Of a DNA stretch of 64,000 nucleotides, positions 9,351 through 59,910 are shown piece by piece (the first letter of the stretch is position 1; each line of letters starts with the position of its first letter). Source of the stretch: Candidatus Latescibacterota bacterium (GTDB lineage Bacteria > Latescibacterota > UBA2968 > UBA8231). The notes beneath the pieces are model-generated. The model was given only the letters and a program-made list of their open reading frames with translations. It did not search any database and had not been told where the DNA came from. A program made the translations under genes and the position numbers. The stretch is taken from contig CBDFJF010000002.1 of assembly GCA_965248265.1 (NCBI GenBank), positions 3,395,052 through 3,459,051 on the forward strand, in the 5' to 3' direction.

Positions 9351-9426
9351 ACCGGGCGGTGGTCCTGAATCGTATTAGAATCAATAAGTTACGCAGGGCA
9401 CGTGAACTGTCAAGGAACAGGGCAGG

Positions 9427-10179
9427 TCACGTCTCCAACTGGTCGTCGAGGTTGGCGACCACGGTGCCCGGATTTTCCCCGCTGCAGATTTTTATGATGG
9501 CGGACGGCTCGGCAAAGTCGAACAAATGGATGGGGATGTCGTGATCCCGAGCCAGAATAACAGACGGATGATCAACCACAGTCAGTTTTTGGCTGATGAT
9601 GGTGTCGTAGTTCATGGTTTTGTACAACCTCGCATCCGCATCCGTGTTCGGATCGGCGGTGAAGATACCCCGCGTGGCGTTCTTGGCGGAGAGGATGGCC
9701 TCAGAGCGTGTTTCGATGGCGCGTTGCGAGGCCGCGTAATCCGTCGTCACATAGGGGTTACCCGTGCCGCCTGCGAATATGACGATGTGACGCTTCTCCA
9801 GATGGTGTATTGCTCGCAAGCGTATGAAGGGTTCTGCGACCCGGTCGACCGGGATCGCGCTCATCACCCGAACCTCGACCGGCGTCGTCGCCTTGGCCGC
9901 GAGGACCCCACGCAACATGAGGCTGTTCACGATGGTTCCCAACATCCCGATGTTGTCGGCCTCGGCTCGTTCGATACCCCACTGTGCGCCCAGATTGCCG
10001 CGAAAAATGTTACCCGCACCGATCACGATGGAGACCTCGACGCCCTCGGCGTGCAGTTTTAACACTTCTTCAGCGATGTGCTCGAGAGCACTCGGATCGA
10101 AGCCGAAATCCTGGTCTCCGGAGACCGCCTGGCCGCTTAGTTTTAGCAGGACTCGTTTATAGCGCATACAGTTCGGCAC
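9427..10179 (-). CDS. pyrH: UMP kinase
   Basis: RVLLKLSG...GAGNIFRG...IVIFAGGTGNPYVTTD are UMP-kinase motifs. Confidence 0.9.
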   Translation of the reverse strand: MPNCMRYKRVLLKLSGQAVSGDQDFGFDPSALEHIAEEVLKLHAEGVEVSIVIGAGNIFRGNLGAQWGIERAEADNIGMLGTIVNSLMLRGVLAAKATTPVEVRVMSAIPVDRVAEPFIRLRAIHHLEKRHIVIFAGGTGNPYVTTDYAASQRAIETRSEAILSAKNATRGIFTADPNTDADARLYKTMNYDTIISQKLTVVDHPSVILARDHDIPIHLFDFAEPSAIIKICSGENPGTVVANLDDQLET

Positions 10180-24109: not shown

Positions 24110-24186
24110 GAGCTATTAGCTCAGCTGGATAGAGCGCTAGCCTCCGGAGCTAGAGGTCACAGGTTCGAATCCTGTATAGCTCGCCA
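24110..24186 (+). tRNA. tRNA-Arg (anticodon CCG)
   Basis: Manual cloverleaf: acceptor GAGCTAT/ATAGCTC, anticodon loop CTCCGGA, T-loop TTCGAAT, 3' CCA. Confidence 0.9.
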
Positions 24187-24199
24187 TCTGTCGACAGGT

Positions 24200-24276
<77 letters not shown>

Positions 24277-24385
24277 TCGTTTAGTGAGATTGGGCTAGGA
24301 TTCGTCGACAAAGAGGATTCCTGGCCCATTCTTCGTTCACGTACACGTTCACGGACATGGTTGGTAGGCTGGAGGGTAGGTACGT

Positions 24386-24463
24386 CGGGGTGTAGCGCAG
24401 TCCGGTTAGCGCACCTGCTTCGGGAGCAGGGGGTCGGCGGTTCGAATCCGCCCACCCCGACCA
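24386..24463 (+). tRNA. tRNA-Pro (anticodon CGG)
   Basis: Acceptor CGGGGTG/CACCCCG, anticodon loop TTCGGGA, T-loop TTCGAAT, 3' CCA. Confidence 0.9.
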
Positions 24464-32639: not shown

Positions 32640-32714
32640 GCAACGGTAGCTCACTGGTAGAGCATCAGCCCTGAGAGCTGAGTGTAGCGGGTTCAATTCC
32701 CGTCCACTGCATCC
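32640..32714 (+). tRNA. tRNA-like element (degenerate; possible phage tRNA pseudogene)
   Basis: Canonical D-arm TAGCTCACTGGTAGAGC, perfect anticodon stem TCAGC/GCTGA, T-arm GCGGGTTCAATTCCCGT. Acceptor has 2 of 7 mismatches and C at position 33. Confidence 0.3.
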
Positions 32715-40263: not shown

Positions 40264-40923
40264 TTACATTGTCTCCAGTGCTGCCGTGTAGGCGTCTATG
40301 GATACCTGAATCGCGTCACGCTGTGCCGTGAGGTCATCAATGATTGCCTGCGTCCGACCGGGGAAGTCGTTGGTGCTGATACCTGACGTGGTGACGGCCT
40401 TGCCTGCGCGCTGGCCGGGAGACTCGTAGCCCTGCGCTCTGGCCGCACGCGCTTCAGCCGACTTGACCCGCGCATCTGCCAACGTCGCCCTGCGTTTCTC
40501 TGTCGTTACCTCAACCTCAGCGCCGAACGTCCTGACCCACGCGGTCAGGCTGTTGGATGACACGCCGACATCTCTGGCAACGTCACTGTTCGTTTCGCCT
40601 GCGAGGATGCGAGCCACAGCCTTGCGCTTGAAGCCGTCCGTGTAGCGCTTCTGCGCCTTCCCCTTCTGTGGGCCTTTGCCCGCTCGTGCGACTGCCGCCT
40701 GCCCTTGCATCCGTGTGGTCTCGGATTTTACGGGGGAGATGAGTTTCTCATCATTACACCAGCGACTGACGCTCTTCTGGTTGAGTCCCATAGCGTCGGC
40801 AATTGCCGACTGCGACTCTTTGCCTTTGAGAAACCGCCTGACCGCCTGCTTCTTGATTCGGATGCCGATGCGAGGCCCCTTCGCGTTCTCTGCTGTCGGC
40901 GCTGCTGCTTCCGTCGTTTCCAT
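40264..40923 (-). CDS. DNA-binding protein with two transposase-type HTH (IS3 OrfA-like) repeats
   Basis: RRFLKGKESQSAIADAMGLNQKSVSRW and FKRKAVARILAGETNSDVARDVGVSSNSLTAWVR. SD AGGAGG before ATG 40923. No DDE partner. Confidence 0.5.
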   Translation of the reverse strand: METTEAAAPTAENAKGPRIGIRIKKQAVRRFLKGKESQSAIADAMGLNQKSVSRWCNDEKLISPVKSETTRMQGQAAVARAGKGPQKGKAQKRYTDGFKRKAVARILAGETNSDVARDVGVSSNSLTAWVRTFGAEVEVTTEKRRATLADARVKSAEARAARAQGYESPGQRAGKAVTTSGISTNDFPGRTQAIIDDLTAQRDAIQVSIDAYTAALETM

Positions 40924-40963
40924 TACGTCCTCCTGAGTTGTATGGATTTTGAACAAGCCAGTG

Positions 40964-44607: not shown

Positions 44608-45015
44608 ATGCCAGCAGGAGCAGTAAAGAAATATTCTGACGACCAGATCATTGCCGCCCTGCACGCTACGGGCGGCCTTGTGACGCACGCGGCCAAGGCG
44701 ATGGGTACGGTACCCAAGACGCTCTACGACCGCATGGCCCGCACCCCGGCGCTCAAGCTCGCCCTGGACGAGATACGCAACGGCAAGCTGGATTTCGCCG
44801 AATCGAAGCTGATGGAACTGATCGCCAAGGGGCAACCCTCTGCGATCATTTTTTTTCTCAAGTGCCTGGGCAAGGAGCGCGGCTACGTCGAGCGCGTCGA
44901 GAATACCGGCAAGGATGGCAAGGATTTAAACATCCTACCGGTGATCGCTCCGCCACGCGCTGCTAATATGGAAGAGTGGTTAGAGCAGAACCGCAAAGAG
45001 GCCAACGCCGCATGA
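44608..45015 (+). CDS. terminase small subunit
   Basis: N-terminal HTH. Positioned directly upstream of, and overlapping, the large terminase gene. Confidence 0.65.
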   Translation: MPAGAVKKYSDDQIIAALHATGGLVTHAAKAMGTVPKTLYDRMARTPALKLALDEIRNGKLDFAESKLMELIAKGQPSAIIFFLKCLGKERGYVERVENTGKDGKDLNILPVIAPPRAANMEEWLEQNRKEANAA

Positions 45016-46478
45016 GCACGGCCCTCGACAGACTGCAGGCACCCATTGTCAAAGCGGCACATGGTCCGGGGGAGATCCCTCCTCCCGCCAAGGACGGGGA
45101 GGTAGCCTGGAAGCCGCAGGAGGGACCGCAGTCAGCGGCCATCCGTGCCGCTTTTGTCGATGAGCTGTTCTACGGCGGTGCCGCTGGTGGTGGTAAGTCG
45201 GATTTCCTGTTGGGTGACTTCCTGCAGGACGTGTTCCAGGGTGCCGCATGGCAGGGCGTGCTGTTTAGACGCTCCTATCCCGCCCTGGACGAGCTGGTCC
45301 ACCGTTCTCATCAAATCTTCCCGTTTACCGGTGCCAAGTGGAAAGCGGGGGCCTACCAGTGGGTGTGGCCCAACGGCGCGATGCTGCGTTTCCGCCACAT
45401 GGAAAACGTCTTCGACTTCACCAAGTACCTGGGTCACTCCTGGTCGTGGATTGGGTTTGACGAACTACCCGAGTGGGAGGATTTGGCCTGCTACAATCGT
45501 ACCAAGTCCCGTTTGCGTGGGGTGGCCAAACACAAGCGGATGCGCTCGACCGGCAACCCTGGCGGTCCTGGCCATCACGCGGTGCAAGCCTACTTCGGTA
45601 TTCCCGATGAACCGCTGGGGTTGGGCAACATCGAAGTCATCCGGGACGAGGACACCGCCATGTCGCGGATGTTCATTCCGGCCCGCGTCCAGGACAACAA
45701 AATCCTGCTGGATTCGGATCCCTCCTACGTCTCGCGCCTCAAGGGCGTCGGTGACCCGGAGCTGGTCAAGGCGTGGCTGGAGGGAGATTGGCGAGCCCTG
45801 GTCGGTGGCTTCTTTGTGTGGGCTGAGCCCGAGGTCGCTTGCGACCCGTTCATGGTGGGCGAGGATTGGCCGCTGTTCGGGTGCATCGATTACGGGGAAT
45901 ACGCGCCCTGCTGCTGCCTGCTCTTGAGCGTGGACTACGATGATCGCGTCTACGTCGTCGGTGAATACTACCAGGCCGAACGCTCAGCGCACGAAAACGC
46001 CGCAGGCATAATGGAAATGATCCAAGGGTGTCCGTTCACGAAGGGGCGGATGCCCGATCACATTTATGCCCCGCACGACATGTGGATACGGCGTCGGTTG
46101 GGTGAGGATTCAGCCAATGCGGCCGAGGACGTTTTTCGGCAAGCCGGGCTCTATCTCACCAAGGCTGCCGTGGGCCGCGAGGCCAAAATCAATGGCTGGC
46201 GCATCATCAACACGGCCCTGCATCGCGGCTTCTTGAAGGTGTTTCGCAAGAGCGCTCCCAACCTGATGCGCACGGCTCCCACCATCACTCGCGACGACCG
46301 CAACCGCGAGGACATTTCCCCGCGCTCTGAAGATCACGCCTTGGACGCGTTGCGTTACGGGATGCTCCACATCTACACGCCCGCTGAGCCAGTGAAACCC
46401 GCGCAGAAAAACCCATTTCTGGGCGACAACGTGATAAAGACGCAACAGAAGCTGGCCAAGATGGGAGCGTTGCGGTGA
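45012..46478 (+). CDS. terminase large subunit
   Basis: Walker A GGAAGGGKS, ATPase and nuclease halves. ATGA overlap with terS. Confidence 0.85.
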   Translation: MSTALDRLQAPIVKAAHGPGEIPPPAKDGEVAWKPQEGPQSAAIRAAFVDELFYGGAAGGGKSDFLLGDFLQDVFQGAAWQGVLFRRSYPALDELVHRSHQIFPFTGAKWKAGAYQWVWPNGAMLRFRHMENVFDFTKYLGHSWSWIGFDELPEWEDLACYNRTKSRLRGVAKHKRMRSTGNPGGPGHHAVQAYFGIPDEPLGLGNIEVIRDEDTAMSRMFIPARVQDNKILLDSDPSYVSRLKGVGDPELVKAWLEGDWRALVGGFFVWAEPEVACDPFMVGEDWPLFGCIDYGEYAPCCCLLLSVDYDDRVYVVGEYYQAERSAHENAAGIMEMIQGCPFTKGRMPDHIYAPHDMWIRRRLGEDSANAAEDVFRQAGLYLTKAAVGREAKINGWRIINTALHRGFLKVFRKSAPNLMRTAPTITRDDRNREDISPRSEDHALDALRYGMLHIYTPAEPVKPAQKNPFLGDNVIKTQQKLAKMGALR

Positions 46479-48547
46479 AACAAAAAGACATTGATTTCTG
46501 GAAAAAGCAGATCGATGCCACCAACCGCTTCATGGCTCCCAAGCACAAGGTGTGGAAACGTCTGCTGCAGCAGTACCGGCTGGAATTTGCCGACATGCCG
46601 GTCGAGGAGGCCAAGCAGCGCAAGATTTCGCGCTTCTATCCGATCACCCGCCAGATTATCGCCAGCATTGCCTTCTTCAATCCCCGCGTCTTGCTGCGGG
46701 TCGAGGACAACAACCGCGAGTTCCAGGCCGAGCTGCTGGAGCGTGTGGCCAACGACGCTCTGCGTTTGCAGAACGCCAAGCGGGAGATTCAGCAGCAGAT
46801 TTTCGACACGCTCTACTGCAACGTCGGCTGGGTCAAGATGGGCGTGAACCCACCCGGCGATAAAGAGCTGATCCCGCCTTATGTGGCCAACGACTCGCTG
46901 GCCAACGGCATGGTGTTTTTACAGCGGCGCTCGCCCTTCGACATCTACCCGGACCCGCTGACCCCGCCGCACGATTTCGGCCAAGCCCGCTTTATGCGCG
47001 AGGACATGCTGGCCCCCCATGAGTTTGTCATGGAGGACGAGCGCTTCAAGAAGTTTAAACACCGCGACCAGATTAAGCCGCTGTCTGACGCCGACGCCGA
47101 GGAGAAAATCCTGGAGAATATCCAGGAAGCCAATCCGGCATCGGAGGAGGAGGAGCGCCAAGCCATGATGGATTCGCGCATCGAGGGCAAGTACGTCCTC
47201 CTGCATGAAATCCATCATCGCACCAAGAAGAGGATGTACACCTTTGCCGAGGGCGTGGAGCAGCCGCTGGAGGACATCGAGCATCCCTTCCTGGCAGGCA
47301 CCACACTGACGGAAGCAGACCCGTTCACGGGCGAGGACCACATCGTTGGCTTCCAGGCCACCGAAGGGTTTTTAGTGGCCAACGGCTTCCCCTACATCCC
47401 GATGAAATTCGATAAGTCGTTCGACTCCTTCTACGGCTTGCCGATGATGGGCTACGATGAGGACATCCAGGAGGGCATCATCGAGTCGATGTCCCGGCGC
47501 ATGGACAACCTCAAGCGCGGCGCTCGCATGGTGGTGGGCAACCAGAAGGAAAAAGCGCTCAACCCCAACATCGAGGAAGAGTTCGCCAAGGGCGATGACG
47601 GCCACATTCTTTGGTCGAACGACCCGAACAACAGTTTCCGCGAAGTGCTTACCGGTAACATTCTGCCCGACCAGTTGGGCACCGAATCCGACCTGCGTAA
47701 CTACGAAGAGCAGATACTGCAGGTGGGAGCCACGTCGGTGGGCGGCTCGCGGACGACGGCCACACAGGCGTCTCTAACCGCGTCGTTCGGCCAGCTCAAT
47801 CGGGAGTGGATGCAAGATGAAGTAGCGCGGGTGTTTGAGGACGTGTCCTACAACAACCTGCGCATCATGGGCGACAAGCGCTACACCCCCAACAACTTCA
47901 TCGTCAACGTCGAGCAGTCGGACAATGACCCGGTGTACGAGGCCGTGACCTCCGACATGCTGCGGGCGCGGTTCAAGGTGCAAATCGAGGCGGGTTCGAT
48001 GAAGCCGCTGTTCGATCAGCTGGAACGCGACGACGCCTTGGCCTTGTTCAACTACCTCATCCAGGTGCCCGAGGTACCACGCCAGGAGTCGTTGAAGCTG
48101 CTGCTGCGTGCCTTCCGGGTTCCCAACATCGAAAAGTTCTTGGGCGACGAAGCCCACACCGATGCGGTGCGAGCTGCACAGCTGGAAAACATGCTGATGC
48201 TACAAGGCCAGCCTCTGCAGGTTACGCCGCTTGAAAATCACATGGTGCACATGCGCCACCATCAGCAGCTGTTTGCCGCTCCGCACTACACGCAAATGCT
48301 ACCGCAACAGCAGCAAATCGTGCAACAGCTGGTGGTGCAGCACATGCAACTCCACGAGCAGGCGTTGGCACAGCGGGCGCAGGGTCTTCGACCTGGACCC
48401 TCCAATGTGTCCGACGCTGGAGGAGGTGGCGGCGGTGGTGGTCCTATGGAAACCGTGCAGGCGGCTACCGGTAAGGTGGACTCAGCCGTTCGCTCCTCCG
48501 CTCAAACGATTGGCCAGAAGGTCAACATAGACGCGAATCAAAATTGA
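46475..48547 (+). CDS. portal protein
   Basis: 690 aa following the terminase. Q-rich and Gly-rich C-terminus. Confidence 0.7.
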   Translation: MKQKDIDFWKKQIDATNRFMAPKHKVWKRLLQQYRLEFADMPVEEAKQRKISRFYPITRQIIASIAFFNPRVLLRVEDNNREFQAELLERVANDALRLQNAKREIQQQIFDTLYCNVGWVKMGVNPPGDKELIPPYVANDSLANGMVFLQRRSPFDIYPDPLTPPHDFGQARFMREDMLAPHEFVMEDERFKKFKHRDQIKPLSDADAEEKILENIQEANPASEEEERQAMMDSRIEGKYVLLHEIHHRTKKRMYTFAEGVEQPLEDIEHPFLAGTTLTEADPFTGEDHIVGFQATEGFLVANGFPYIPMKFDKSFDSFYGLPMMGYDEDIQEGIIESMSRRMDNLKRGARMVVGNQKEKALNPNIEEEFAKGDDGHILWSNDPNNSFREVLTGNILPDQLGTESDLRNYEEQILQVGATSVGGSRTTATQASLTASFGQLNREWMQDEVARVFEDVSYNNLRIMGDKRYTPNNFIVNVEQSDNDPVYEAVTSDMLRARFKVQIEAGSMKPLFDQLERDDALALFNYLIQVPEVPRQESLKLLLRAFRVPNIEKFLGDEAHTDAVRAAQLENMLMLQGQPLQVTPLENHMVHMRHHQQLFAAPHYTQMLPQQQQIVQQLVVQHMQLHEQALAQRAQGLRPGPSNVSDAGGGGGGGGPMETVQAATGKVDSAVRSSAQTIGQKVNIDANQN

Positions 48548-49867: not shown

Positions 49868-50863
49868 ATGGTTGCTGTATCCACCACTGAAACGTGGGAT
49901 GCAGCGTGGACGCTAACCATGCGGGCCAAGCGTAAGCGTCTCACGGACAACATCAGCGACAACTATCCGCTTTTGGGTAGGCTGCGTAAGTCTGGTGTGC
50001 TGGAGACGGAAACCGGGGGTAAAGAGTACCAAGAGGATTTGATGTACGCCCTCGGTACCTCCGAGTGGTTCGATGGATACGACGTGCTGAACACCGACGC
50101 GATGGATGGCATCACGGCGGCGTTCTACACACCGCGCTACAATGCCACACCTATCGTCATTTCGATGACGGAGGAAATGGAATCGCGCAAGGCTGCCGGT
50201 TCCGAGAAGTTGCTAACGGCCAAAACCACCCAGGCCATGACGGGCTCGTTCGACACCATCAACGCTGCGGCGTTGGGGGCACAGTCGGGCAAATCCATGC
50301 TGGGGTTGCAGGACATTGCCGCCCAGGCATCCGGTACCACGTTGGGCGGTATCTCTGGTGCCACCAACACCTGGTGGGAAAATGCCCGCACGGACTTTAA
50401 CGCCACCTACACCTCGTTTGTAACCAAAGTCGGTGATCGCTACGAGGGGATCATCGGTATGGGTGTGGTGTGGAACAACTGTTCTGAGGGCAACGACCAT
50501 CCCAACCTGATCGTCACAAGCTACACCAACTACGGGTTTTACGAGGACATCTTCGAGTCCACGGGCTACACCCGTATGGTGACTTCGGGCGCGAGAACTG
50601 GTCCCAACTTCGGGATTGGTGCCGAGGGAGACATCACCTACCGTGGCGCACCGGTCATTCCTGACCGCGACTGCGCGACGGATGACATGTACCTGCTCAA
50701 CACGAAGTACCTCAAGCTCAAAGTGCAGGCGGGCTTGAATTTCGCGAAAACGCCGTTCAAGGAGCCGTCGAACCAGATGGCCAAGGTCGCTTTCGTGGTC
50801 GTAGGATTACAGCTCGTGACGAACCATCGTGCTCGTCAGGGCGTGCTCTACGACATCGCATAA
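49868..50863 (+). CDS. major capsid protein (putative)
   Basis: 331-aa ORF in the canonical position after the scaffold gene. Confidence 0.55.
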   Translation: MVAVSTTETWDAAWTLTMRAKRKRLTDNISDNYPLLGRLRKSGVLETETGGKEYQEDLMYALGTSEWFDGYDVLNTDAMDGITAAFYTPRYNATPIVISMTEEMESRKAAGSEKLLTAKTTQAMTGSFDTINAAALGAQSGKSMLGLQDIAAQASGTTLGGISGATNTWWENARTDFNATYTSFVTKVGDRYEGIIGMGVVWNNCSEGNDHPNLIVTSYTNYGFYEDIFESTGYTRMVTSGARTGPNFGIGAEGDITYRGAPVIPDRDCATDDMYLLNTKYLKLKVQAGLNFAKTPFKEPSNQMAKVAFVVVGLQLVTNHRARQGVLYDIA

Positions 50864-50949
50864 AGGGTTCGGGGGGCAAGCCAATGCCCCCCGCCAACAA
50901 CTCTGCCCATAGAGGTAGAACCCGGAGGTGGGAGTAGAAGAGTAACATC

Positions 50950-51807
50950 ATGCCTTGGAATCTGGGCGATGGCGGCGACATCGGAAACGGGTCGCACGGC
51001 GATGCTCACATCACAGGTGGAGTACGGGCGAAGCAGGGGCTGTATGCTGTTTCGACTACACAGAATTACCCGCTGGGGTATCCCAAGCGGTTCGGTGACG
51101 GACGGGCCTATCGGTATACCCACTTTTCCGGTGCGGTTGGACCGGGCAAGCTGGCTGCGATAGACGCAACGTCACAGGACATCACGCAGACGGCAGCCAC
51201 GGCAGTGCGCGACTCAGCTGGCGCGGCTGCGGATGTCGCCACGGGCCAGGAAACGCTCTACTTCCTGGACACGGACAAGTTCACGACGGCCCACTCCGAC
51301 GACACGCTTGCCGGTGGCACTCTGCACATCATCAACAACTCCGGTGGCGCGGTTGCATCGGAGGGACACCAGTACGCCATCAAGTCGAACACGTACACGG
51401 CTTCCACCAGCGTGATGCAAATCGACTTGTACGACGCCACGGCCACGGCCCTCAACTCTGAGGACTTGGTTGGCGTCACCGGCAATCCGTACAAGCAGAA
51501 TGTCATCTACAACGCTGCGGCCGATGATGTGATTTCGGGCGTGACGCTCGTGGACATGGCGGCAGCCGAGTACGGGTGGGTGCAGACGTGGGGTGTGGCC
51601 ACGTGCCTGATGGACGGCACGCCCACGCGGGGCGCTATCCTGACCGGCGCGGATGCGGTCGATGGTGCTGTGCAGGTGATTGGTGGTGGCACGGTGGCTT
51701 CAGAGGAGAACCTGCTTGACCTGACCACGGAGCCCGTTGTCGGTTACGCACTGCAGGTGGTCACCACGGCGGGGTATATCCCGCTGTACTTGCAGATTGC
51801 TCCATGA
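50950..51807 (+). CDS. virion structural protein (decoration-like, Ala/Thr/Gly-rich)
   Basis: 285-aa ORF between the capsid gene and the glycosyltransferase island. Confidence 0.4.
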   Translation: MPWNLGDGGDIGNGSHGDAHITGGVRAKQGLYAVSTTQNYPLGYPKRFGDGRAYRYTHFSGAVGPGKLAAIDATSQDITQTAATAVRDSAGAAADVATGQETLYFLDTDKFTTAHSDDTLAGGTLHIINNSGGAVASEGHQYAIKSNTYTASTSVMQIDLYDATATALNSEDLVGVTGNPYKQNVIYNAAADDVISGVTLVDMAAAEYGWVQTWGVATCLMDGTPTRGAILTGADAVDGAVQVIGGGTVASEENLLDLTTEPVVGYALQVVTTAGYIPLYLQIAP

Positions 51808-52577
51808 GTTGTCGCGCCTTCACGAAGGTCAGGAACGAGGAGGCGATGATTGCCGACACCCTCGATACCTGGGCCGACGTGTGCTGCGATGGGATTCACG
51901 TGTATCTCGATAACTGTACGGATGGGACCGGTGAAATCTGCCGGGACCATCCTGCAGTTGTTGAAGTGATAGAGTCCAACCTGTACGACCCTGATCGACC
52001 ACGGTCAGACTGCTACGGACGGCAAACGCTGTGGCGTTCGGTGTCCCGGTTCGTGGGGGCCGAGGATTGGGTGTGCTACTTCGATGCGGACGAGCACTTG
52101 CACGACTTCCCGCTCGATGTGCTCGACGTGAGCGAAGTGAGGGTGATCGCACCGCATTGGTGTGATGCCTACATCACGGAAGAGGATGAGCGCATTGATG
52201 ACTATCGCAAGCGTGAGTGGATCAGTACGGAAAGGCGGATCATCCCAATGTTTTTTAGAGCTGGCGGGTGCAGGGGTTACACGCGCCCCGACCAGCGCAT
52301 CATGGACACGGTGGTGACACCCAGGCTGGACCAGTTTGGCTTGATAAAGCACTACGGATTGGGCCACTCGGTGGAGCAGTGGGAGCGCAAGGTAGCCTAC
52401 TACCGCGATGAGTGGCCGCAGTATTCAGCCAAGTGGGCCGCGAGAGCGGGGAAGGCCGTGCGTAGGCAGCCTTACTTCTCAGTCAACTGTAGAAGGCTGG
52501 GAAAGTTCAGCGATTACAGCAGGGAGGTAAGGGCCAGCAATGATCGTCGTTTGCGTGCCTTTTCTCAAGCCGCATAA
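51804..52577 (+). CDS. glycosyltransferase family 2-like (GT-A fold)
   Basis: KVRNEEAMI...VYLDNCTDGTGEI and YFDADEH (DxD) are GT2 hallmarks. Confidence 0.6.
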   Translation: MSCRAFTKVRNEEAMIADTLDTWADVCCDGIHVYLDNCTDGTGEICRDHPAVVEVIESNLYDPDRPRSDCYGRQTLWRSVSRFVGAEDWVCYFDADEHLHDFPLDVLDVSEVRVIAPHWCDAYITEEDERIDDYRKREWISTERRIIPMFFRAGGCRGYTRPDQRIMDTVVTPRLDQFGLIKHYGLGHSVEQWERKVAYYRDEWPQYSAKWAARAGKAVRRQPYFSVNCRRLGKFSDYSREVRASNDRRLRAFSQAA

Positions 52578-53325
52578 AAAGTTCCTGCCCCACTTCATTG
52601 AGTGGTACGCCGGGAACAAACTCAAGCACGAGCTGGAGCTGGTGTGGCAGATGTATCGCCCGTTGCACAAGGCCCAACGCGAAGGAGTGAAAGCGGCACA
52701 GCGACTGGGCGCATCCCACATCTTGTTCACGGAAGACGACCAATGGGGGTTCCCGCTGGACGGGCTGGACGTGTTACTAAAAGAGGACAAGGATGTCATC
52801 GGGTTCAGTACCTACATGCGCTCGTATCCCCACCTGCCCATGCACATGCGTAAGGTGGATGAGTCCATACCGCTGGTTGATGAGCAGATGCGCAAAAACC
52901 TCAAGCCGGTGGCAGTGGGGGATGGGCCTGACGTACAAGCGGTCGATTTAATTACCTGGGCGTTTACCCTGGTAAAGGTGGACGTGTTTAAACGATTGGA
53001 AAATGACCCCTTTGCCCAGTGGGGAGAGTCACCGACCGACAGTTATTTCAGCCAGTACTGTGATGACGTAGGCATTAAGCGGCACACGCATTTCGGCTAC
53101 ACCATCGGCCACGGCGACGTGGCCCCCGAGCACGTGCCGTTCAGTCGCAGGATGTGGGAATCTATTCATTCGGCGGCGGGCGTATTCGCGGAGGATGCTG
53201 TTACCGCTGACGCCCGACCGGAAATCAACGACGCCAAGCTGCACGAGAGGGAGATGGAAGCTATGGAGGCAGATGCACTGGCAAATCGACCCACGGACTT
53301 GCCGTGGATGGTGGAGGCAGCATGA
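52540..53325 (+). CDS. GT-A-like glycosyltransferase (putative)
   Basis: VCVPF...FTEDDQW has a DxD-like core. 261 aa. Coupled to the flanking GT genes. Confidence 0.45.
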   Translation: MIVVCVPFLKPHKKFLPHFIEWYAGNKLKHELELVWQMYRPLHKAQREGVKAAQRLGASHILFTEDDQWGFPLDGLDVLLKEDKDVIGFSTYMRSYPHLPMHMRKVDESIPLVDEQMRKNLKPVAVGDGPDVQAVDLITWAFTLVKVDVFKRLENDPFAQWGESPTDSYFSQYCDDVGIKRHTHFGYTIGHGDVAPEHVPFSRRMWESIHSAAGVFAEDAVTADARPEINDAKLHEREMEAMEADALANRPTDLPWMVEAA

Positions 53326-54209
53326 AAATCCTGCTCACCAATCACAGCCTGAAGGATGTCGGCGGTACCGAGAAGTGGACGTACACGATGGCGCAGGAGT
53401 TGCAACGGCGCTTGCATGAGGTGGAGGTGTTCACCTTCATGCGGGGCACAACCTCTGAAAAAATAGAGGACTTCTTCCCGGTGGTGGATGACCCAAGCCT
53501 GGACGGGTATGACCTCATCATGTCGAACCACAACACCTGCCTGTCACAGGTGCAGCACATCCCTGGCTACAAGGTGCATACCTGCCACGGGCCGAAGCAC
53601 CAGCTGGAGCAGCCAGTCGGAGGAGCGGACGCCTACGTGGCCGTCTCTCCAGAGGTGCGCAAGCACGGGGCCGAGCTGGGGTTCAAGATGAAGGTTATCG
53701 GCAACGCGCTGGACCTCGACATGTTCGCCCCTCCGCCGCAGACAACCGAAGTCAACGTGCGCCCTCGCGTGTTGTCCATGTGTAAGGCGGTTGGGGCCAG
53801 CAATATGATAGAGGACTGCTGCAAGGCGGCGGGATTCGACTACGATACGGTGCACTACCTGGAGCGGCCTGTATGGGACACCGCCGACCTCATCAAGCAG
53901 GCTGACATTGTGGTTGGCGTGGGGCGCACGGCACTGGAAGGGCTGGCTTGCGGCAAGGCGGTATTCAACTTCGACGGGCGCACGAAAGAACCAAGAGGCG
54001 ATGGGTGGATTACGAATCGAAACGTCGATGAGTTGTCGCGGTTCAACTTTTCCAGCCGCGCCACTTTCAAATACTGGACGGTACCTGAGCTGACGGACGC
54101 GCTGTTAGCGTTCAGGCCACAGTCATGGTCGCCGCAGTGGGTACGGACTAACGCCAACATCACCGACGCGGCGTTGCGCTACTTATCCCTCGTGCCGGTG
54201 GCCGCGTAA
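53322..54209 (+). CDS. glycosyltransferase family 1/4 (GT-B fold)
   Basis: MKILLTNHSLKDVGGTEKW...EGLACGKAV is a GT4 architecture. ATGA overlap with the upstream gene. Confidence 0.65.
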   Translation: MKILLTNHSLKDVGGTEKWTYTMAQELQRRLHEVEVFTFMRGTTSEKIEDFFPVVDDPSLDGYDLIMSNHNTCLSQVQHIPGYKVHTCHGPKHQLEQPVGGADAYVAVSPEVRKHGAELGFKMKVIGNALDLDMFAPPPQTTEVNVRPRVLSMCKAVGASNMIEDCCKAAGFDYDTVHYLERPVWDTADLIKQADIVVGVGRTALEGLACGKAVFNFDGRTKEPRGDGWITNRNVDELSRFNFSSRATFKYWTVPELTDALLAFRPQSWSPQWVRTNANITDAALRYLSLVPVAA

Positions 54210-54256
54210 TAGTAGAGAAGTTCCACAGGAGGAACGGGAGAGAAACAAGATGGACA

Positions 54257-54625
54257 ATGGCAAAGCAAGAAGGTTCCACTGTATCCGCGACCGCCCCTGC
54301 CGCCGCACCTGCCAGCGATGGCTTGCAAAGTCTGGTGGCCATGATTCACAAGGCGGGTCCAGAAGCTAAAGAGGCTATGCGCTCGGCGCTGGGAGTAGGC
54401 AAGGCGATTCAGCCTCCCAAGAATCAACAGAGCAACGCGGACGCCAAGCGTATCGCCTACTCGGTGGGCGAAATCGTGCACCCGGAAGGGTTTCTACCCA
54501 AGCCGTCCGAGCACCTTGTCGAGCAGGGACCAGAAGCGGTGGCGGAGTGGCAGGCATCCTGGCTGGCCCGCAATCGCAATCCGTCCAGCAAGGCGGAAGA
54601 GTACGCGGCCGTGGCCGTTGAGTGA
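54257..54625 (+). CDS. hypothetical virion-module protein
   Basis: 122-aa ORF. Confidence 0.4.
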   Translation: MAKQEGSTVSATAPAAAPASDGLQSLVAMIHKAGPEAKEAMRSALGVGKAIQPPKNQQSNADAKRIAYSVGEIVHPEGFLPKPSEHLVEQGPEAVAEWQASWLARNRNPSSKAEEYAAVAVE

Positions 54626-54845
54626 CAAGAAGCGACAGGTCAACGCGGCTTCCTTTTTCGGGGAGCAGTTGATAATTGGCGATGCGCAAATCGACACCAT
54701 TGACGTGGGATCCGTGCTCAAGCTGTCGAACTTGACGACAGCCGAGCGGGATGCGCTGACAGCCGCCAATGGCATGGTGATCTACAACACGACGGACAAC
54801 AAGTTTCAAGGATACGAGAACGGCGCATGGGCCAATCTGATTTAG
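54618..54845 (+). CDS. hypothetical small protein
   Basis: TTG start overlapping the upstream stop. 75 aa. Confidence 0.25.
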   Translation: MSDKKRQVNAASFFGEQLIIGDAQIDTIDVGSVLKLSNLTTAERDALTAANGMVIYNTTDNKFQGYENGAWANLI

Positions 54846-54874
54846 GGGGAGCGGGAGTAGGTCATATGGGATAA

Positions 54875-55795
54875 GTGACACTTGCAACAGCAATGGAGAT
54901 GCTGCTCAAGCGTGTCGGCCTGGACGAGACGAACACCACGTTCAAAAATCAGGCCCGGCTGTATCTCAATATTGCAGCCAAAGAGCTGGGTGGGCTGGCC
55001 GATTGGTGGTGGCAGTACAAGCAGAGTTCTATCGTTACCACCAGCACGCTCACCGTATCGTCTGTTTCGGGCACGTTCGTGGCCGCCGAGACGATCACGG
55101 GCGGCACCTCTTCCCGCACTGCAACGATAGGGGCGCTCTACGACGCCACCAATGCCCCTACCGCGCTGTTTTATCGGTCGCCTTCCAATACCACTGACTT
55201 CACCAGCGGCGAAACCATCACGGGCGGTACTTCTGGAGCTACCGCTACGGCTGGGGCTGATGTCATTACCCGCCAGTACCAGCTCGCCTCTGATGTGCTC
55301 ATGCCCTACAGCTGGCGCGATGAGACGAATAACCGTCGCCTCCTCATTGCCTCGTGGGACGAGATGGACCGGGCCGACCCCGACCAGGATCAAGAGGGGG
55401 ACGCTCGCTGGATAGTACCCGAAGGCATCGACAGCGCCACGGGCTACCAGATTGTGGCCGTCTTTCCGCTGCACTCCACCAGCAACGAAACCTTCCGCTA
55501 CCGCTACTACAGCTACATCCCCGATTGGACCTCCGGTAACGACGCCACCTCGCTGGATGGCTGGATCCCCCAGCTGCTGCAGCCAGCGCTGATCTACGCC
55601 GGGGCGGCGCTCTATAAGCAAGAGAAGGGCGACGACGAGGGCGCAGAACAAGAGCGCATCGAGTACGACCGGCAGGTAGACCGTGGACTCAAGGTTAACT
55701 CGCAGATGTTCGGGAACCGCAGGCGGGCGCGTTCAGACGGCGCTGTTGCACCGGGCTTTCGGTTCTACGTCCAGGAAGGGTCGTTGAGCGCGTAA
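54875..55795 (+). CDS. head-tail connector/adaptor-like protein with internal Thr/Gly-rich tandem repeat
   Basis: N-terminus MEMLLKRVGLDETNT resembles gp6-like connectors. Insertion AETITGGTSSRTAT.../GETITGGTSGATAT... Confidence 0.45.
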   Translation: MTLATAMEMLLKRVGLDETNTTFKNQARLYLNIAAKELGGLADWWWQYKQSSIVTTSTLTVSSVSGTFVAAETITGGTSSRTATIGALYDATNAPTALFYRSPSNTTDFTSGETITGGTSGATATAGADVITRQYQLASDVLMPYSWRDETNNRRLLIASWDEMDRADPDQDQEGDARWIVPEGIDSATGYQIVAVFPLHSTSNETFRYRYYSYIPDWTSGNDATSLDGWIPQLLQPALIYAGAALYKQEKGDDEGAEQERIEYDRQVDRGLKVNSQMFGNRRRARSDGAVAPGFRFYVQEGSLSA

Positions 55796-57324
55796 TGCCT
55801 ATCGACGGCGACTCAATCATTCATGGTCCGTGGACGGGTGGTGCCATCTACAACCTGCCCCCAGAAAACCTGGAGGAGGACCAGTGCACGGACACCATCA
55901 ACGTGCGCATCGGGCAGGCAGGTGAGGCCGAGAAGCGACGCGGCTCGCTCAATTACAAGTCGGTGCGCCAGAACATCGCCGCCGACCCCAACGTGATGGC
56001 GTGCGGGCAGTACCGGGAATCAGCGACATCCACCCCAGTGTTCAAGTCGGTAGCCGCCGTGTTTTACGAGTACACGGGTGGCTCCTGGGTTGACCGCACC
56101 GGGGGCCAGACGATTACAGCGGACAAGACGTTTGAGTGGGCGGGGGCTAACGGCACGCTGGCGCTGACCAACGGCACGGACGCTCCGCTGAAGTGGACGG
56201 GCGCGGGCAATAATCTCGCATTGCTCGATGTGGACTCTCAGTTCACGACGGCATTGCACGTCGCCTATTGGGACAACCGGTTGTGGATGGCCAATACCAA
56301 CGCCAACACCGACCGGCTGTGGCACTCCGATTTGGGCGCTATCGAAACCTGGGCGGCGACCAGTTTCTACAACCTGGGCTCTGAAGTTATCGGGCTCATG
56401 CCGGTGTCGGACTCGTTGGCCATTCACACGGTGGACGGGATTCACACGCTGACACCCACGGGCAATAGCACCATCCCGTACCAGCGCCAGCAGCAGACCC
56501 AGCAGGCCAGCGTATCGGGGCGGGCCATCCTCACGGTTCCAGGGAACCGTCAGTTCTTTGTGCAGGACGAGGGGATTTACGAATGGGATGGCGACAAGGA
56601 GGTGACCAAGGCGTCGGTCGCGTTGGATGATGGCTACTGGGACAGTTTAAACGAGGCGCAGCTGGATAGCACGTTCGCGGTGTACTACCGCATTAACAAC
56701 GAGCTGTGGTTCTGGCTGCCCTACGGCACGTCGCAGACCAACATGAACGACATCATGGTCTACAACCTGGAGAAAGAGCGATGGCATGGGCCGTTTCGGG
56801 GCAACGCGTCAACGACCTACTACGAGCGAGCCTGCGCCGCCTTGATCGACAGCAAACCACACGCTGGAGACTTCCTTGGCGAGGTGGTCGATCACGACCC
56901 GGTGGACACCTACACCGATGTGAACGACGCCACCACCAACGCCATTCACGCGCAATTCACGACCAGCGCCAAGGCACCTGAAGGCGAGGCGAAGCGGCTC
57001 AAGTGGTTGTTCTCTCGTAGCTACTTCGACTCGGTGGGTGACTTCGATGTGACTCTGACGCAGCTGTCGTCGGGGCTGTCGGGTACCAGCGAAACGGTGG
57101 ACATGGGGGCGTCGGGTTTCACGCTGGACAACGACAAACTGGACCTCACGTCACTGGGCTCCATTCGCGTGCAAGCCAAGGACGCGGAGCTAAGTGGCTA
57201 CGACCCTCACTCATCGGTCACGGTCACGCAGAACGTGTCTGCTGAGTTCTTCCGCTACCGGAAGATAGTCCAGGTGTACAAGGAAATCGGAATCAAACGT
57301 AAACGAGCAGCAGGAGTCAGTTGA
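55795..57324 (+). CDS. virion protein (tail accessory/beta-rich)
   Basis: 509-aa ORF in the tail-side module. Confidence 0.45.
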   Translation: MPIDGDSIIHGPWTGGAIYNLPPENLEEDQCTDTINVRIGQAGEAEKRRGSLNYKSVRQNIAADPNVMACGQYRESATSTPVFKSVAAVFYEYTGGSWVDRTGGQTITADKTFEWAGANGTLALTNGTDAPLKWTGAGNNLALLDVDSQFTTALHVAYWDNRLWMANTNANTDRLWHSDLGAIETWAATSFYNLGSEVIGLMPVSDSLAIHTVDGIHTLTPTGNSTIPYQRQQQTQQASVSGRAILTVPGNRQFFVQDEGIYEWDGDKEVTKASVALDDGYWDSLNEAQLDSTFAVYYRINNELWFWLPYGTSQTNMNDIMVYNLEKERWHGPFRGNASTTYYERACAALIDSKPHAGDFLGEVVDHDPVDTYTDVNDATTNAIHAQFTTSAKAPEGEAKRLKWLFSRSYFDSVGDFDVTLTQLSSGLSGTSETVDMGASGFTLDNDKLDLTSLGSIRVQAKDAELSGYDPHSSVTVTQNVSAEFFRYRKIVQVYKEIGIKRKRAAGVS

Positions 57325-57327
57325 GCT

Positions 57328-59910
57328 ATGAGTGAATACTACTTTCCAACAGATAGAGAGCGCCCCCGTCCTCCCCCGCGACTGAGGGAGGACCAGAAAA
57401 TAGATATGCCGGTGTGGGAGTTTTTGAAGCCAAGTCAATTCCAAAGCTTCGAGGACTTGCTGAAAAGAGCAGAGTCGTTCAGGCCCAGCGCTGGTTTGAC
57501 GAGTGCGCTACAGGGTGCCCCAGCGGCAGGCAAGGCACTGCAGGGGTTCAGCAACTTCCGCTCGCCCTCTGGTTTTAACCAGTTCGTTGGACAGGTGGGT
57601 ACTGCTGAAACTCAGATAGGCGGGTTTCCGCAAGGGCTCCAGACTGCCCTTGGAGACGCCAAGAGTTTGACGGGCGAGCTGAGAACAGCGAACGACCTGT
57701 TGGGTGGTGGTTCGTTCGGCGGCGAGCCCTTCGGTGGCATCATCGCTGAAGCGCAGGATCAGGTTAAGGGGGTGCAAGACGAGGTAAATAAGCTGAGAGT
57801 TGATCCCAATCAGCTGCTGGGACCGAACCTCGAAGCCGACCTACTGGCAGCCCTGCAGGGTCGCAACATGCCGACCATCGACCCCAACCGTTTTATTGAC
57901 GAGCCGGGGTTGGATACGGCTATTCGGCAGCTGCGTCCTGAAACCATTGACCCAAATCTGTTGCTCGATGAGACGGGACTTAACACTGCCGTGCGTGATC
58001 TTCGACCCGAAACGATTGACCCGAGCCGGTTGCTTGATGAGGGCGGGATCAATACCGCGATTGGCAACCTCCTTCCTCAACAGATTGATCCCAGCCTGCT
58101 GCTTAATGAGGGTGGAATTGACGACGCTATCGCGGGCCTTCGTCCTCAGACAATAAAATCAGACCTACTGCTGAACGAAGGTGGCATCAACGACGCTATC
58201 GCAGGGCTGCGCCCAACACAGCAAATCGACCCTGGCCTGCTACTTAATGAGGGCGACATCAACGCTGCCATTGGAAACCTGCTGCCTCAACAGATTAACC
58301 CCGACCTACTGCTTAATGAGGGTGGAATTGACGACGCTATTGGAAACCTGCGTCCTCGACGAATTGACGCTGGCCGCTTAATGCCGGGTGGTTTTGATCT
58401 GGCCAACGCGGTACGTGATCTCGACGTGCCTCAGGTAGAAGCCGGTCGCCTGCTCCCAGGCACAGGTGCGCTGGAGGATGAGCTGGCACGGACACCGATT
58501 GACCGGCTGTCGCCAAGCAGGATATTGCCTGAGTTGCCTGGGTTGAACGAAGCCATCCAGGCACTGGAAGTTGATCGCATAGGAGCTGGACGGCTACTTC
58601 CAGGTGAGGGTGAGCTGAGCGCAGAGCTGAGACGCACGCCCATCGAAAGGCTGGCGGCCAGTCGGGTGCTGCCTGAAAGGCTGAATGAGGCGTTGCGCAC
58701 GGCTGTCTCACGGCTGAGTACGGACGAGGTGCTGCCCAGGGGTGATCTGAACGATGCACTCCAGGACCGCGTAGGGCGTCTCACGGAGGATCAAATCTTC
58801 CCCACTGGTGACTTGAATGCAGCTCTCGGCGGGCGTGTAGATAGGCTCACGGCGGGTGACGTGCTACCTACGGGCGATTTAAACGCTGCACTGCGTGACC
58901 GGGTGGACCGACTCGGGGCAGGCGATGTGCTGCCCGAGGGGGATTTGGGTGGGGCTCTGCGTGATCGGGTAGGACGCCTTACCGAGGATGACATCTTTCC
59001 TGGCGGTGATTTAAACGCCTCGCTGCGCGACCGGGTGGGTGGTCTGACGGAGAGCGACATATTCCCAGATGACTTGCAGTCCATTCTGGAGGGCCGGGTC
59101 AACCCGCTGCAGGCAGATGACCTCATCCCACGGACTGGGGCGCTGGCCGATGTGTTGCGTGACCGCCGTCCTGGCCTGCTCGACCTACTGGAGTTCCCTG
59201 AGTTTACCAACCTACTGGACGAGCGCTTGCCCGAGGGCAGTATCCCAGGTATTGAGGCGCAGCTGGCTGGGCTCGCAGAGCAGGGTGGAACGGGAGGTGG
59301 GGGAACTGGGACTGGAGGGACAGGCACGGGCACTACTGTGCCAGCCCCTGCGACGGGACTCGACGCCTTTCTTGAACAGTTGCAGGGAGTCGTTGGGAAC
59401 CTGACCACTGGACCGGAGACATCCGACGAGCTGCGCCAAGACCCGCTCACGGCGTCCCTGTTGGCTGATTTTGAGGATCAGAGCGGGCGTGATCGTTCAC
59501 AGGCGATGGAGGACTTGCAGCGTCTGGGCGTGCTGGGCGACGGCGATACCGCTGACGTGCTGGGTGAGCTGACAAGCGGCCAGCGTCGAGGTGAGTTCGA
59601 CATCCTGGGCGATGCGGCTGAGCGCTTCCGCACCGACCGTAGCCAGGGCTTGGGTGCTGGCGTGGACTTGTTCGGCGCAGCTGGCCAGCGCGAGCTGGGC
59701 CTGGGTCAGCTGGGCCTGCAGGGACAGGAGATGGATATGGCCATCCTGTCGCAGGTGGCATCACTGCTCGACCCGAACCTCCACCTGGATGCCAAGGGAG
59801 GGAAGAACCTGGAACTGGCAAGTATCCTGCTTTCACTCTCAGGGCTGCCGCCTGACAAGCAAGCGCAGCTGCGCAAAGCATTGGGATTACCCCCCCAGTC
59901 AGGGAGCTAA
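57328..59910 (+). CDS. 860-aa virion protein built of three families of 22-24-aa tandem repeats (about 25 copies)
   Basis: Repeats like IDPxLLLNEGGIxxAIxxLRP, RLLPGxGxLxxELxRTPIxRL and DxLPxGDLNxALRDRVxRLTxx. Gly/Thr-rich linker GGTGGGGTGTGGTGTGTT. Confidence 0.6.
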   Translation: MSEYYFPTDRERPRPPPRLREDQKIDMPVWEFLKPSQFQSFEDLLKRAESFRPSAGLTSALQGAPAAGKALQGFSNFRSPSGFNQFVGQVGTAETQIGGFPQGLQTALGDAKSLTGELRTANDLLGGGSFGGEPFGGIIAEAQDQVKGVQDEVNKLRVDPNQLLGPNLEADLLAALQGRNMPTIDPNRFIDEPGLDTAIRQLRPETIDPNLLLDETGLNTAVRDLRPETIDPSRLLDEGGINTAIGNLLPQQIDPSLLLNEGGIDDAIAGLRPQTIKSDLLLNEGGINDAIAGLRPTQQIDPGLLLNEGDINAAIGNLLPQQINPDLLLNEGGIDDAIGNLRPRRIDAGRLMPGGFDLANAVRDLDVPQVEAGRLLPGTGALEDELARTPIDRLSPSRILPELPGLNEAIQALEVDRIGAGRLLPGEGELSAELRRTPIERLAASRVLPERLNEALRTAVSRLSTDEVLPRGDLNDALQDRVGRLTEDQIFPTGDLNAALGGRVDRLTAGDVLPTGDLNAALRDRVDRLGAGDVLPEGDLGGALRDRVGRLTEDDIFPGGDLNASLRDRVGGLTESDIFPDDLQSILEGRVNPLQADDLIPRTGALADVLRDRRPGLLDLLEFPEFTNLLDERLPEGSIPGIEAQLAGLAEQGGTGGGGTGTGGTGTGTTVPAPATGLDAFLEQLQGVVGNLTTGPETSDELRQDPLTASLLADFEDQSGRDRSQAMEDLQRLGVLGDGDTADVLGELTSGQRRGEFDILGDAAERFRTDRSQGLGAGVDLFGAAGQRELGLGQLGLQGQEMDMAILSQVASLLDPNLHLDAKGGKNLELASILLSLSGLPPDKQAQLRKALGLPPQSGS
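57880..59060 (+). repeat. coding tandem repeats (unit about 66-72 bp)
   Basis: Recurrent DNA units, e.g. CTGCT(A/G)CTTAATGAGGG(T/C)GG(A/C)AT(T/C)(G/A)ACGA(C/T)GCTAT. Confidence 0.6.

Follow-up and report, generated by a model that had tools for sequence, protein, structure and literature searches.

A prophage capsid decoration gene coupled to three glycosyltransferase genes: a candidate system for glycosylation of the virion surface

To our knowledge, the only phages shown to glycosylate their own particles are certain mycobacteriophages. In phages of the Che8, Corndog and Myrna type, glycans are carried on the C-terminal tails of capsid and tail tube subunits, where they shield the particle against immune recognition and blunt antibody recognition (Freeman et al. 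2023, as summarised in PMC12619734 and PMC13313380). The present analysis concerns a prophage in a stretch of 64,000 nucleotides from a Candidatus Latescibacterota bacterium (contig CBDFJF010000002.1, positions 3,395,052 to 3,459,051; this whole stretch is referred to as the window, and coordinates are those of the window). In its late operon, the gene for a capsid decoration (cement) protein, X285, is followed directly by three overlapping glycosyltransferase genes, together termed the cassette. We propose that the encoded enzymes would O-glycosylate X285 in the cytoplasm, giving the capsid a variable glycan coat, and assign this reading a rough probability of 0.55.

The likeness to the mycobacteriophage system lies in phage-encoded glycosyltransferases, sometimes accompanied by a methyltransferase, which are thought to act in the cytoplasm on the phage's own virion proteins and to build a surface glycan shield; here such a system is predicted from the genes. 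The differences are several. The mycobacteriophage acceptors are C-terminal tails of capsid and tail tube proteins in actinobacterial siphoviruses and myoviruses, whereas here the capsid protein has no such tail and the gene set is that of a podovirus, without a tail tube. The predicted acceptor is instead a separate decoration protein, modified on internal loops, and the cassette lies between the decoration and adaptor genes. Its middle enzyme represents an undescribed GT-A family, sulfotransferases are encoded by relatives, and the probable host belongs to another phylum, assumed to be Gram-negative. The proposed system resembles that of the mycobacteriophages in principle but lacks its defining acceptor feature. 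Literature searches turned up neither a decoration protein described as glycosylated nor a podovirus whose capsid module was described as holding a glycosyltransferase cassette.

Two further systems invite comparison. Giant viruses encode cytoplasmic glycosyltransferases and methyltransferases that act independently of host secretory glycosylation, on the capsid of chlorovirus PBCV-1 and on the fibrils of mimivirus. The system proposed here would share with them virus-specific glycans on capsid-surface proteins, and mimivirus R699 is among the fold matches of the middle enzyme. Giant viruses differ in having eukaryotic hosts and large pathways that include sugar-nucleotide synthesis; here two or three enzymes are encoded by a phage of about 40 kb in which no sugar-nucleotide genes were seen. 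The GtrABC serotype converters, which are usually morons located close to the attachment site and are expressed by lysogens, comprise a membrane flippase, a membrane-anchored bactoprenol glucosyltransferase and a polytopic serotype-specific transferase. They too are prophage-borne glycosyltransferases. In contrast, the window encodes three soluble enzymes coupled to late structural genes, with no membrane partner, and because membrane components are missing the cassette is not a Gtr-type serotype converter.

X285 (285 residues; 50950-51807, + strand) is the predicted glycan acceptor. It shares the capsid decoration-protein fold, as the earlier reading of the letters alone (below, the sequence-only reading) had supposed, and its gene stands directly after the capsid gene. 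The top structural match is HFTV1 gp18 CSP; the other structural relatives are the base of phi29 gp8.5, the Pam3 cement protein, the FCWL1 and Sf11 decoration proteins and the TW1 capsid stabilizing protein. On the outside of its capsid, HFTV1 gp18 is arranged as trimers that sit at the interfaces of major capsid protein (MCP) trimers (PMC12494034). Given this fold and the placement of HFTV1 gp18, X285 is very probably a high-copy protein of the outer capsid surface. In the same paper, which covers the only relative so checked, we saw neither glycosylation of gp18 nor a link to glycosyltransferase genes (PMC12494034). X285 is about twice as long as the solved cement proteins, which implies further beta structure beyond the shared core, and its cassette-linked version has two extra loops. 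A fold search of BFVD with X285 returned only uncharacterised phage proteins of about 160 residues. The post-capsid protein of Bradyrhizobium phage ppBjS10J-1 was considered as a further relative and rejected (hhalign probability 0.8%).

The sequence-only reading had named three consecutive glycosyltransferases, and all three identifications are borne out, two of them by profile searches and the third by fold. The first gene (51804-52577, + strand) encodes a GT2-like GT-A glycosyltransferase of 257 residues that matches PF13704 (Glyco_tranf_2_4) at 38.6 bits (cut-off 27.5, E 1.6e-9). Residues F93, D94, D96 and E97, within a DxD-like acidic motif ('FDADEH'), are invariant in nine homologues. 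The family profile weakly matches PDB 7msk, annotated as a Glyco_trans_2-like protein (E 0.008), which we take to be a peptide S-glycosyltransferase. The third gene (53304-54209, + strand) encodes a GT4-like GT-B glycosyltransferase of 301 residues if read from a GTG codon, although the ATG at 53322, which overlaps the stop codon of the preceding gene, is the likelier start and gives 295 residues. It matches PF13439 (Glyco_transf_4) at 39.7 bits (cut-off 28.5, E 6.5e-10), only N-terminal residues 19-54 being aligned. Both halves of its family profile weakly match GT-B/GT4 enzymes (PimA, GlgA and BH4 glucosyltransferase), and residues 193-293 match the C-terminal halves of GT4 enzymes, again weakly (E 0.008-0.4). 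Glycines G20 and G21 near the N-terminus are invariant, as is a C-terminal G-R-x3-E motif (G207, R208, E212).

The middle gene (52540-53325, + strand) encodes Y261, a protein of 261 residues with no Pfam, PHROG or PDB sequence match; PDB sequence searches with X285, Y261 and the adaptor returned only noise. Its AlphaFold2 model has a mean predicted local distance difference test (pLDDT) score of 89.9, and Foldseek matched it to 177 PDB structures at E<=1e-3, the top-listed of which are nearly all GT-A glycosyltransferases, with some nucleotidyltransferases lower down. Among the matches are the glycosyltransferase domains of LH3 and ColGalT1, together with Mnn9, STIV A197, B4GALNT1 and mimivirus R699, with E-values down to 3e-8. 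The best of them, LH3, ColGalT1/GT25 and Mnn9/Anp1 (GT62), include two protein O-glycosyltransferases, LH3 and ColGalT1. However, 12-15% identity and a template-modelling score of about 0.5 amount to generic GT-A similarity and do not place Y261 in GT25 or GT62. An invariant 'FTEDDQW' motif and invariant E65, D67 and H191 are found across 72 close homologues. A hidden Markov model (HMM) search of 1.84 billion representatives recovered 31 clusters (formed at 50% identity) at E<=1e-30 and 175 at E<=1e-10, and distant relatives match the Pfam families Anp1 (GT62) and Glycos_transf_2. Taken together, the GT-A fold, the conserved motif, the missing sequence matches and the distant Anp1 and Glycos_transf_2 relatives mark Y261, on its predicted structure, as a genuine GT-A enzyme whose family is as yet undescribed. 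When representative genomes were scanned with the Y261 alignment, no relative came up, and an exact look-up of the window Y261 and of P0001 for genomic context had nothing on record.

The four genes are tightly packed. X285 and the GT2-like gene, and likewise Y261 and the GT4-like gene, share ATGA stop-start overlaps, while the GT2-like gene and Y261 overlap by 38 nucleotides. A scan of the + strand from 50863 to 54300 called no promoter-like or terminator-like site. The translational coupling claimed in the sequence-only reading is thereby upheld, as is the placing of the genes among capsid and tail genes of a late structural operon, with terminase, portal and MCP genes on the 5' side and genes for virion structural and internal virion proteins on the 3' side. 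Directly after the stop codon of the capsid gene lies a G+C-rich hairpin (50870-50893, + strand; 9-bp stem, minimum free energy -24.9 kcal/mol, z -2.3), which was not called in the terminator scan because no T-run follows it. The hairpin may attenuate transcription into the decoration and glycosyltransferase genes, or stabilise the transcript, and in this way fix how much capsid protein is made relative to downstream products. Kyte-Doolittle hydropathy averaged over 19 residues peaks at 1.35 or less in each of the three enzymes, which have no membrane-spanning segment and are predicted to be soluble.

The same enzymes might instead serve to modify a host envelope glycan, be it lipopolysaccharide, exopolysaccharide, capsule or a lipid-linked intermediate, late in infection or in the lysogen. 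Receptor masking, which would keep progeny or competing phages from adsorbing, would be one example, and the position beside the decoration gene would then be incidental. The element is a prophage, and serotype-conversion glycosyltransferases are described as common in temperate phages (PMC12619734). Soluble GT2 and GT4 enzymes often work at the cytoplasmic membrane face on lipid-linked acceptors, and methylation and sulfation, both encoded by relatives of the cassette, are known on bacterial surface polysaccharides. On the other hand, the cassette contains no flippase, polymerase, acyl- or lipid-carrier transferase or transmembrane protein; it has no sigma-70-like promoter of its own and is translationally coupled to a late structural gene. 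Its distribution among related phages, described next, also bears on this alternative.

Related loci (given L numbers), covering about 45 metagenomic phages, were drawn from the genomic contexts of Y261 homologues, from 18 IMG/VR loci found with the Y261 alignment and from a second prophage, L026. A further IMG/VR search, seeded by the X285 alignment alone, returned 193 relatives, of which 80 were kept. The loci were mapped with HMMs of eight families: Y261, X285, GT4-like, GT2-like, MCP, adaptor, a 509-residue virion protein and portal. In all Y261-recovered loci that include the upstream region, the gene order is MCP, X285, the GT2-like gene (present in about two-thirds of the Y261-recovered loci), Y261, the GT4-like gene, one to several further genes and the adaptor. 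The position of the cassette after the decoration gene is thus fixed in about 23 divergent phages. In all, 29 loci are cassette-positive, with 23 distinct X285 sequences including that of the window, and 33 are cassette-negative, with 22 distinct X285 sequences. In the latter, MCP, X285 and adaptor lie within about 1.5 kb (less than 1.1 kb in 32 of the 33), which in nearly all leaves space only for the two small genes, p122 and a fibre-like gene, that precede the adaptor. X285 lies directly 3' of the capsid gene in nearly all of the roughly 50 loci that have a capsid gene on the contig, whether or not a cassette is present. Because the 33 loci keep the order MCP, X285, adaptor without a cassette, X285 appears to be a standard capsid component of a wider podovirus group and the cassette an insertion exactly between X285 and p122. 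The region has no DNA match among 50,697 GenBank phages; tblastn of GenBank phages found none for X285 and one weak metagenomic match for Y261, so there is no cultured relative to lean on. Two loci are unusual in their X285 genes. L184 (7116-8762) encodes two tandem X285 paralogues. In L108 (3931-6695) the gene for a distant relative of X285 precedes those for a hexapeptide-repeat acyltransferase and a depolymerase tailspike of pectate-lyase type, another case of a sugar-related enzyme in a structural module.

Two loops of X285 vary in length with the cassette. Loop A (residues 86-100, VRDSAGAAADVATGQ; 51205-51249, + strand) is 15-17 residues long in 20 of the 23 cassette-positive homologues, 19 of these 20 having the consensus [FV]x[ND]S[AG]G[TA]A[AK]D. 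In cassette-negative homologues it mostly has 8 residues, with 14 in two sequences and 11 in one. Loop B (residues 243-259, VIGGGTVASEENLLDLT; 51676-51726, + strand) spans 16-26 residues where the full cassette is present and 5-13 where it is absent, and the serine of its xS[EQN] motif, Ser251 in the window, is present in 19 of 19 long-loop loci. Mean lengths in cassette-negative versus cassette-positive homologues are 8.7 versus 15.0 residues for loop A and 8.2 versus 17.6 for loop B (Mann-Whitney p ~1e-7, not corrected for phylogeny). Loop B is the least confident stretch of the X285 model (pLDDT 62-77) and is therefore probably flexible. On this conservation pattern we infer that Ser251 is the strongest candidate acceptor, with loop A second.

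The co-variation of loops and cassette would fit binding equally well: a free or carrier-bound oligo- or polysaccharide might be held by the extra loops of X285 non-covalently, in the manner of a lectin, and many phage decoration proteins do bind glycans. However, no polymerase or export genes accompany the cassette, two to three enzymes are better suited to a short glycan than to a polymer, and a conserved serine within a flexible loop is what one would sooner expect of an attachment site. We give non-covalent binding only a small chance.

The history of the module differs from that of its surroundings. Across the related loci, the pairwise identities of portal, MCP and adaptor co-vary (Spearman 0.73-0.85), whereas those of X285 and the glycosyltransferases do not follow them (0.1-0.3). 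In the MCP tree, phages with and without a cassette are intermingled at four or more points; in the X285 tree, the long-loop, cassette-positive sequences group together, separate from every cassette-negative one (both trees are neighbour-joining trees on p-distances, without bootstrap). Individual pairs illustrate the discordance: cassette-negative L114 and cassette-positive L017 are 75% identical in MCP and 32% in X285, and cassette-negative L127 and the window are 73% and 34% identical, respectively. A similar picture emerges between the window and its sister prophage L026. The flanking proteins are well conserved (terminase 80%, portal 77%, MCP 89%, adaptor 74%, 509-residue protein 74%), but identity falls to 46% in X285, 44% in the GT2-like enzyme, 49% in Y261 and 51% in the GT4-like enzyme. 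At the nucleotide level, the drop from about 80% to 44-62% coincides exactly with the stretch between 50867 and about 54300, beyond which identity rises again. A single further island of this kind, at 57300-59300 within the gene for an 860-residue tail protein (25-45% nucleotide identity, flanks 70-80%), probably corresponds to the part of the tail that recognises the host.

Since tree discordance, uncoupled identities and the divergence island point the same way, the decoration protein and the enzymes appear to form one exchangeable, fast-diverging unit. That this unit diverges as fast as the host-range region of a tail protein suggests selection at the particle surface, for example through defence, grazing, adhesion to host polysaccharide or mucus, or stability. 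The exchange pattern also returns us to modification of the host envelope, which the sequence-only reading had kept as its alternative in the form of surface-polysaccharide modification timed to late expression. The type of decoration protein tracks the cassette independently of the capsid backbone, and receptor masking gives no reason for that. Weakened by this co-variation, by the fixed position of the cassette and by its translational coupling, a role in the host envelope seems to us unlikely but not negligible.

Glycosylation of the virion could also fall on one or more other structural proteins, namely the capsid protein, adaptor, small fibre, nozzle or tail fibre. The mycobacteriophage acceptors are capsid and tail tube subunits (Freeman et al. 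2023, as summarised in PMC12619734), the adaptor has repeats rich in Thr, Gly and Ser, and the 860-residue tail protein is, like X285, part of a divergence island. The adaptor was the connector-like protein in which the sequence-only reading had seen a Thr/Gly-rich tandem insertion and a possible acceptor. It is probably a head-to-tail adaptor of the long SU10-adaptor form (54875-55795, + strand) with no direct Pfam match at E<=0.01, and it is 41% identical, across both flanks of the insertion, to an L001 protein with a precomputed match to PF24175 (SU10_adaptor). The insertion does exist (residues 59-131; 55049-55267, + strand). It consists of two repeats of about 41 residues, ETITGGTSSRTAT and ETITGGTSGATAT, with ETITGGTS..TAT occurring twice, and is absent from short-form adaptors. 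The proposed role as acceptor did not hold up: a homologous insertion is found in 5 of 17 cassette-positive and 8 of 23 cassette-negative loci, and because it is equally frequent in phages without a cassette the adaptor repeat was rejected. A structured repeat domain seems a better description of it than a low-complexity glycosylation tail. A side case is L109 (1453-3163), which has two SU10_adaptor paralogues with a gene for a 122-residue protein between them.

The capsid protein fares no better as acceptor. The MCP (331 residues; 49868-50863, + strand), whose gene forms the left boundary of the module, matches phrog_9953 (major head protein, E 1.2e-38) end to end over residues 6-327. It was rejected because it has no C-terminal extension and no cassette-associated indel, its length being the same in both classes of phage. 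The two small proteins between cassette and adaptor likewise occur with and without a cassette. The first, p122 (54257-54625, + strand), is a small conserved protein, 70% identical in L026, that marks the right boundary of the variable module. The second, a small fibre-like protein (54516-54845, + strand; about 75 residues conserved), matches tail-fibre PHROGs over residues 57-109, and its conserved C-terminal 70 or so residues contain a fibre-trimer motif, 'YNTTDNKFQGYxNGxW'; the L026 homologue weakly matches PF26696 (PTL_trimer). Its true start probably lies later than the listed TTG at 54516, which overlaps p122 by 110 nucleotides. Among MCP, X285, p122, the small fibre-like protein and the adaptor, cassette-associated features are thus confined to X285, and an acceptor elsewhere in the virion is in our estimation decidedly unlikely. 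Of the virion glycosylation suggested by the sequence-only reading, the part that involves the decoration protein remains the best-fitting interpretation, on the strength of gene position and loop co-variation; the adaptor repeat drops out.

The content of the cassette in other phages suggests what kind of glycan X285 might carry. S-adenosylmethionine-dependent methyltransferases are encoded within the cassettes of L003, L007, L010, L019, L020, L023 and L026, and sulfotransferases within those of L003, L019 and L020. In L012, a PhyH-type 2-oxoglutarate/Fe(II) dioxygenase gene (9194-9973) lies between the GT2-like gene and Y261. Since Y261 comes closest in fold to collagen hydroxylysine glycosyltransferases, one may speculate that the L012 phage first hydroxylates a residue and then glycosylates it, in the way of LH3 and mimivirus L230. 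Several loci encode fusions: GT2-like with Y261 in L018 (7740-9101) and L021 (8921-11005), sulfotransferase with methyltransferase and Y261 in L020 (8582-10972), and methyltransferase with Y261 and GT4-like in L023 (9332-12007), all called as open reading frames (ORFs) in this analysis and unchecked for frameshifts. Such fusions tie the enzymes to one process. By its gene content, the cassette would encode a small pathway for building and tailoring a glycan.

A glycan of this kind might in principle be destined for DNA, with the enzymes glycosylating hypermodified bases of the phage genome and so evading restriction. DNA-modifying phage glycosyltransferases are well known from T4 and other phages (Pyle et al. 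2024, as cited in PMC12619734). Against this, no hydroxymethylase- or thymidylate-synthase-like gene was seen among about 20 prophage ORFs scanned, a scan that is not exhaustive for a prophage extending past the window. The cassette also lies in the capsid module, away from replication genes; sulfotransferases and the link to a capsid protein fit poorly; and the phage is temperate and relies on host replication. We allow DNA glycosylation a very slight chance.

We therefore return to glycosylation of X285, for which we propose the following course. If X285 behaves like its structural relatives, hundreds of copies would bind to the outer face of the capsid lattice. The three soluble glycosyltransferases would be translated from the same late transcript as X285 and, in the cytoplasm late in infection, would use host nucleotide sugars to build a short O-linked glycan on Ser or Thr residues of the two loops peculiar to cassette-type X285, with Ser251 of loop B as the first candidate site and loop A as the second. 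Chain initiation on the protein would fall to one enzyme and elongation to the other two. The outcome would be a glycan-coated capsid, the coat possibly serving for shielding, stability or adhesion. In relatives, methyltransferases, sulfotransferases or the dioxygenase would tailor the glycan, and the decoration gene and its enzymes would be swapped between phage backbones as a unit, like a surface-antigen or host-range cassette.

Several observations weigh against this proposal. The serine of loop A is replaced by alanine in 4 of 19 sequences. Four loci that encode Y261 with no GT2-like or GT4-like gene detected (L014, L027, L133 and L172) lack the loop A motif; loop A is short in three of them and 17 residues long in L172, and two of the four contigs end soon after Y261. 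The association between loops and cassette is confounded by phylogeny, since the cassette-positive long-loop X285 sequences fall, in our tree, into one clade. Overall, X285 and Y261 show no more than a weak correlation of pairwise identity (Spearman 0.28). L133, with an insertion of Y261 alone between X285 and p122, and L134, which has none, are 92% identical in MCP and 88% in X285; a single glycosyltransferase gene seems to have been gained or lost here recently, so that Y261 at least can come and go with X285 unchanged. Co-inheritance of X285 and the cassette could also stem in part from mere physical adjacency, which favours co-transfer. Finally, soluble glycosyltransferases can also use lipid-linked or other non-protein acceptors.

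If the proposal is correct, glycan-coated capsids would be a broader strategy, reaching environmental podoviruses of which at least one is integrated in a bacterial genome. The design would be a different one, with a separate and swappable decoration protein as glycan carrier and a chemistry varied by methylation, sulfation and hydroxylation. It would also provide a compact, soluble, cytoplasmic protein-glycosylation kit with a defined candidate acceptor loop, would add a new GT-A family of about 30 sequence clusters (50% identity, E<=1e-30), and would yield a sequence rule, a long-loop decoration protein together with a cassette, for predicting glycosylated phages. The broadest form of the claim is held tentatively, at just short of an even chance: that a widespread, uncultured podovirus lineage carries an exchangeable 'glyco-decoration' cassette, comprising a cement protein with acceptor loops, its own glycosyltransferases and methyl-, sulfo- and hydroxy-tailoring enzymes, which gives the capsid a fast-evolving and sometimes sulfated coat. 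This would be the first such system outside the actinobacteriophages and the first on a decoration protein, and Y261 would found a new family of GT-A protein glycosyltransferases. A paper on Acinetobacter, 'RNA and Sugars', was considered as a precedent and set aside; it concerns carry-over of host lipooligosaccharide and no phage-encoded glycosylation.

The remainder of the window gives the setting of the module. Positions 1 to about 25,500 are bacterial chromosome, with genes for an amine oxidase-like flavoprotein, spermidine synthase, a K+ channel, an adenylosuccinate lyase-like protein, an MltB-like protein, DctP, MreB and MiaA, and the remainder of the window, from about 25.5 kb onward, is prophage. 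In a comparison with 185,579 species representatives, the MreB protein is 90% identical to that of a metagenome-assembled genome labelled Gemmatimonadetes and no more than 62% identical to any other, on which basis the host would probably belong to Gemmatimonadota. The prophage ORFs scanned in the window, which include the left end of the prophage and are not the full set, contained no integrase. The late operon includes the large terminase (44976-46478, + strand) and portal (46475-48547, + strand) genes, and genes for proteins of 133 and 287 residues lie between portal and MCP. Because of this gene set and the SU10-type adaptor, the element is classed, on its genes, as a podovirus-type prophage.

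The early region of the prophage encodes a helix-turn-helix (HTH) regulator, an ERF recombinase, an SPFH protein, a Gam-like protein and a single-stranded DNA-binding protein. A cluster of tRNA genes (Arg, Pro, Pro; 24110-24463) and miaA lie just to the left of the prophage, and a tRNA-Ser gene (anticodon tga) is found within the early region at 32640-32711. An ORF with transposase-type HTH domains (HTH_Tnp_1, HTH_28), at 40264-40956 on the - strand and hence running against the late genes, could represent either what is left of an insertion sequence or a regulator.

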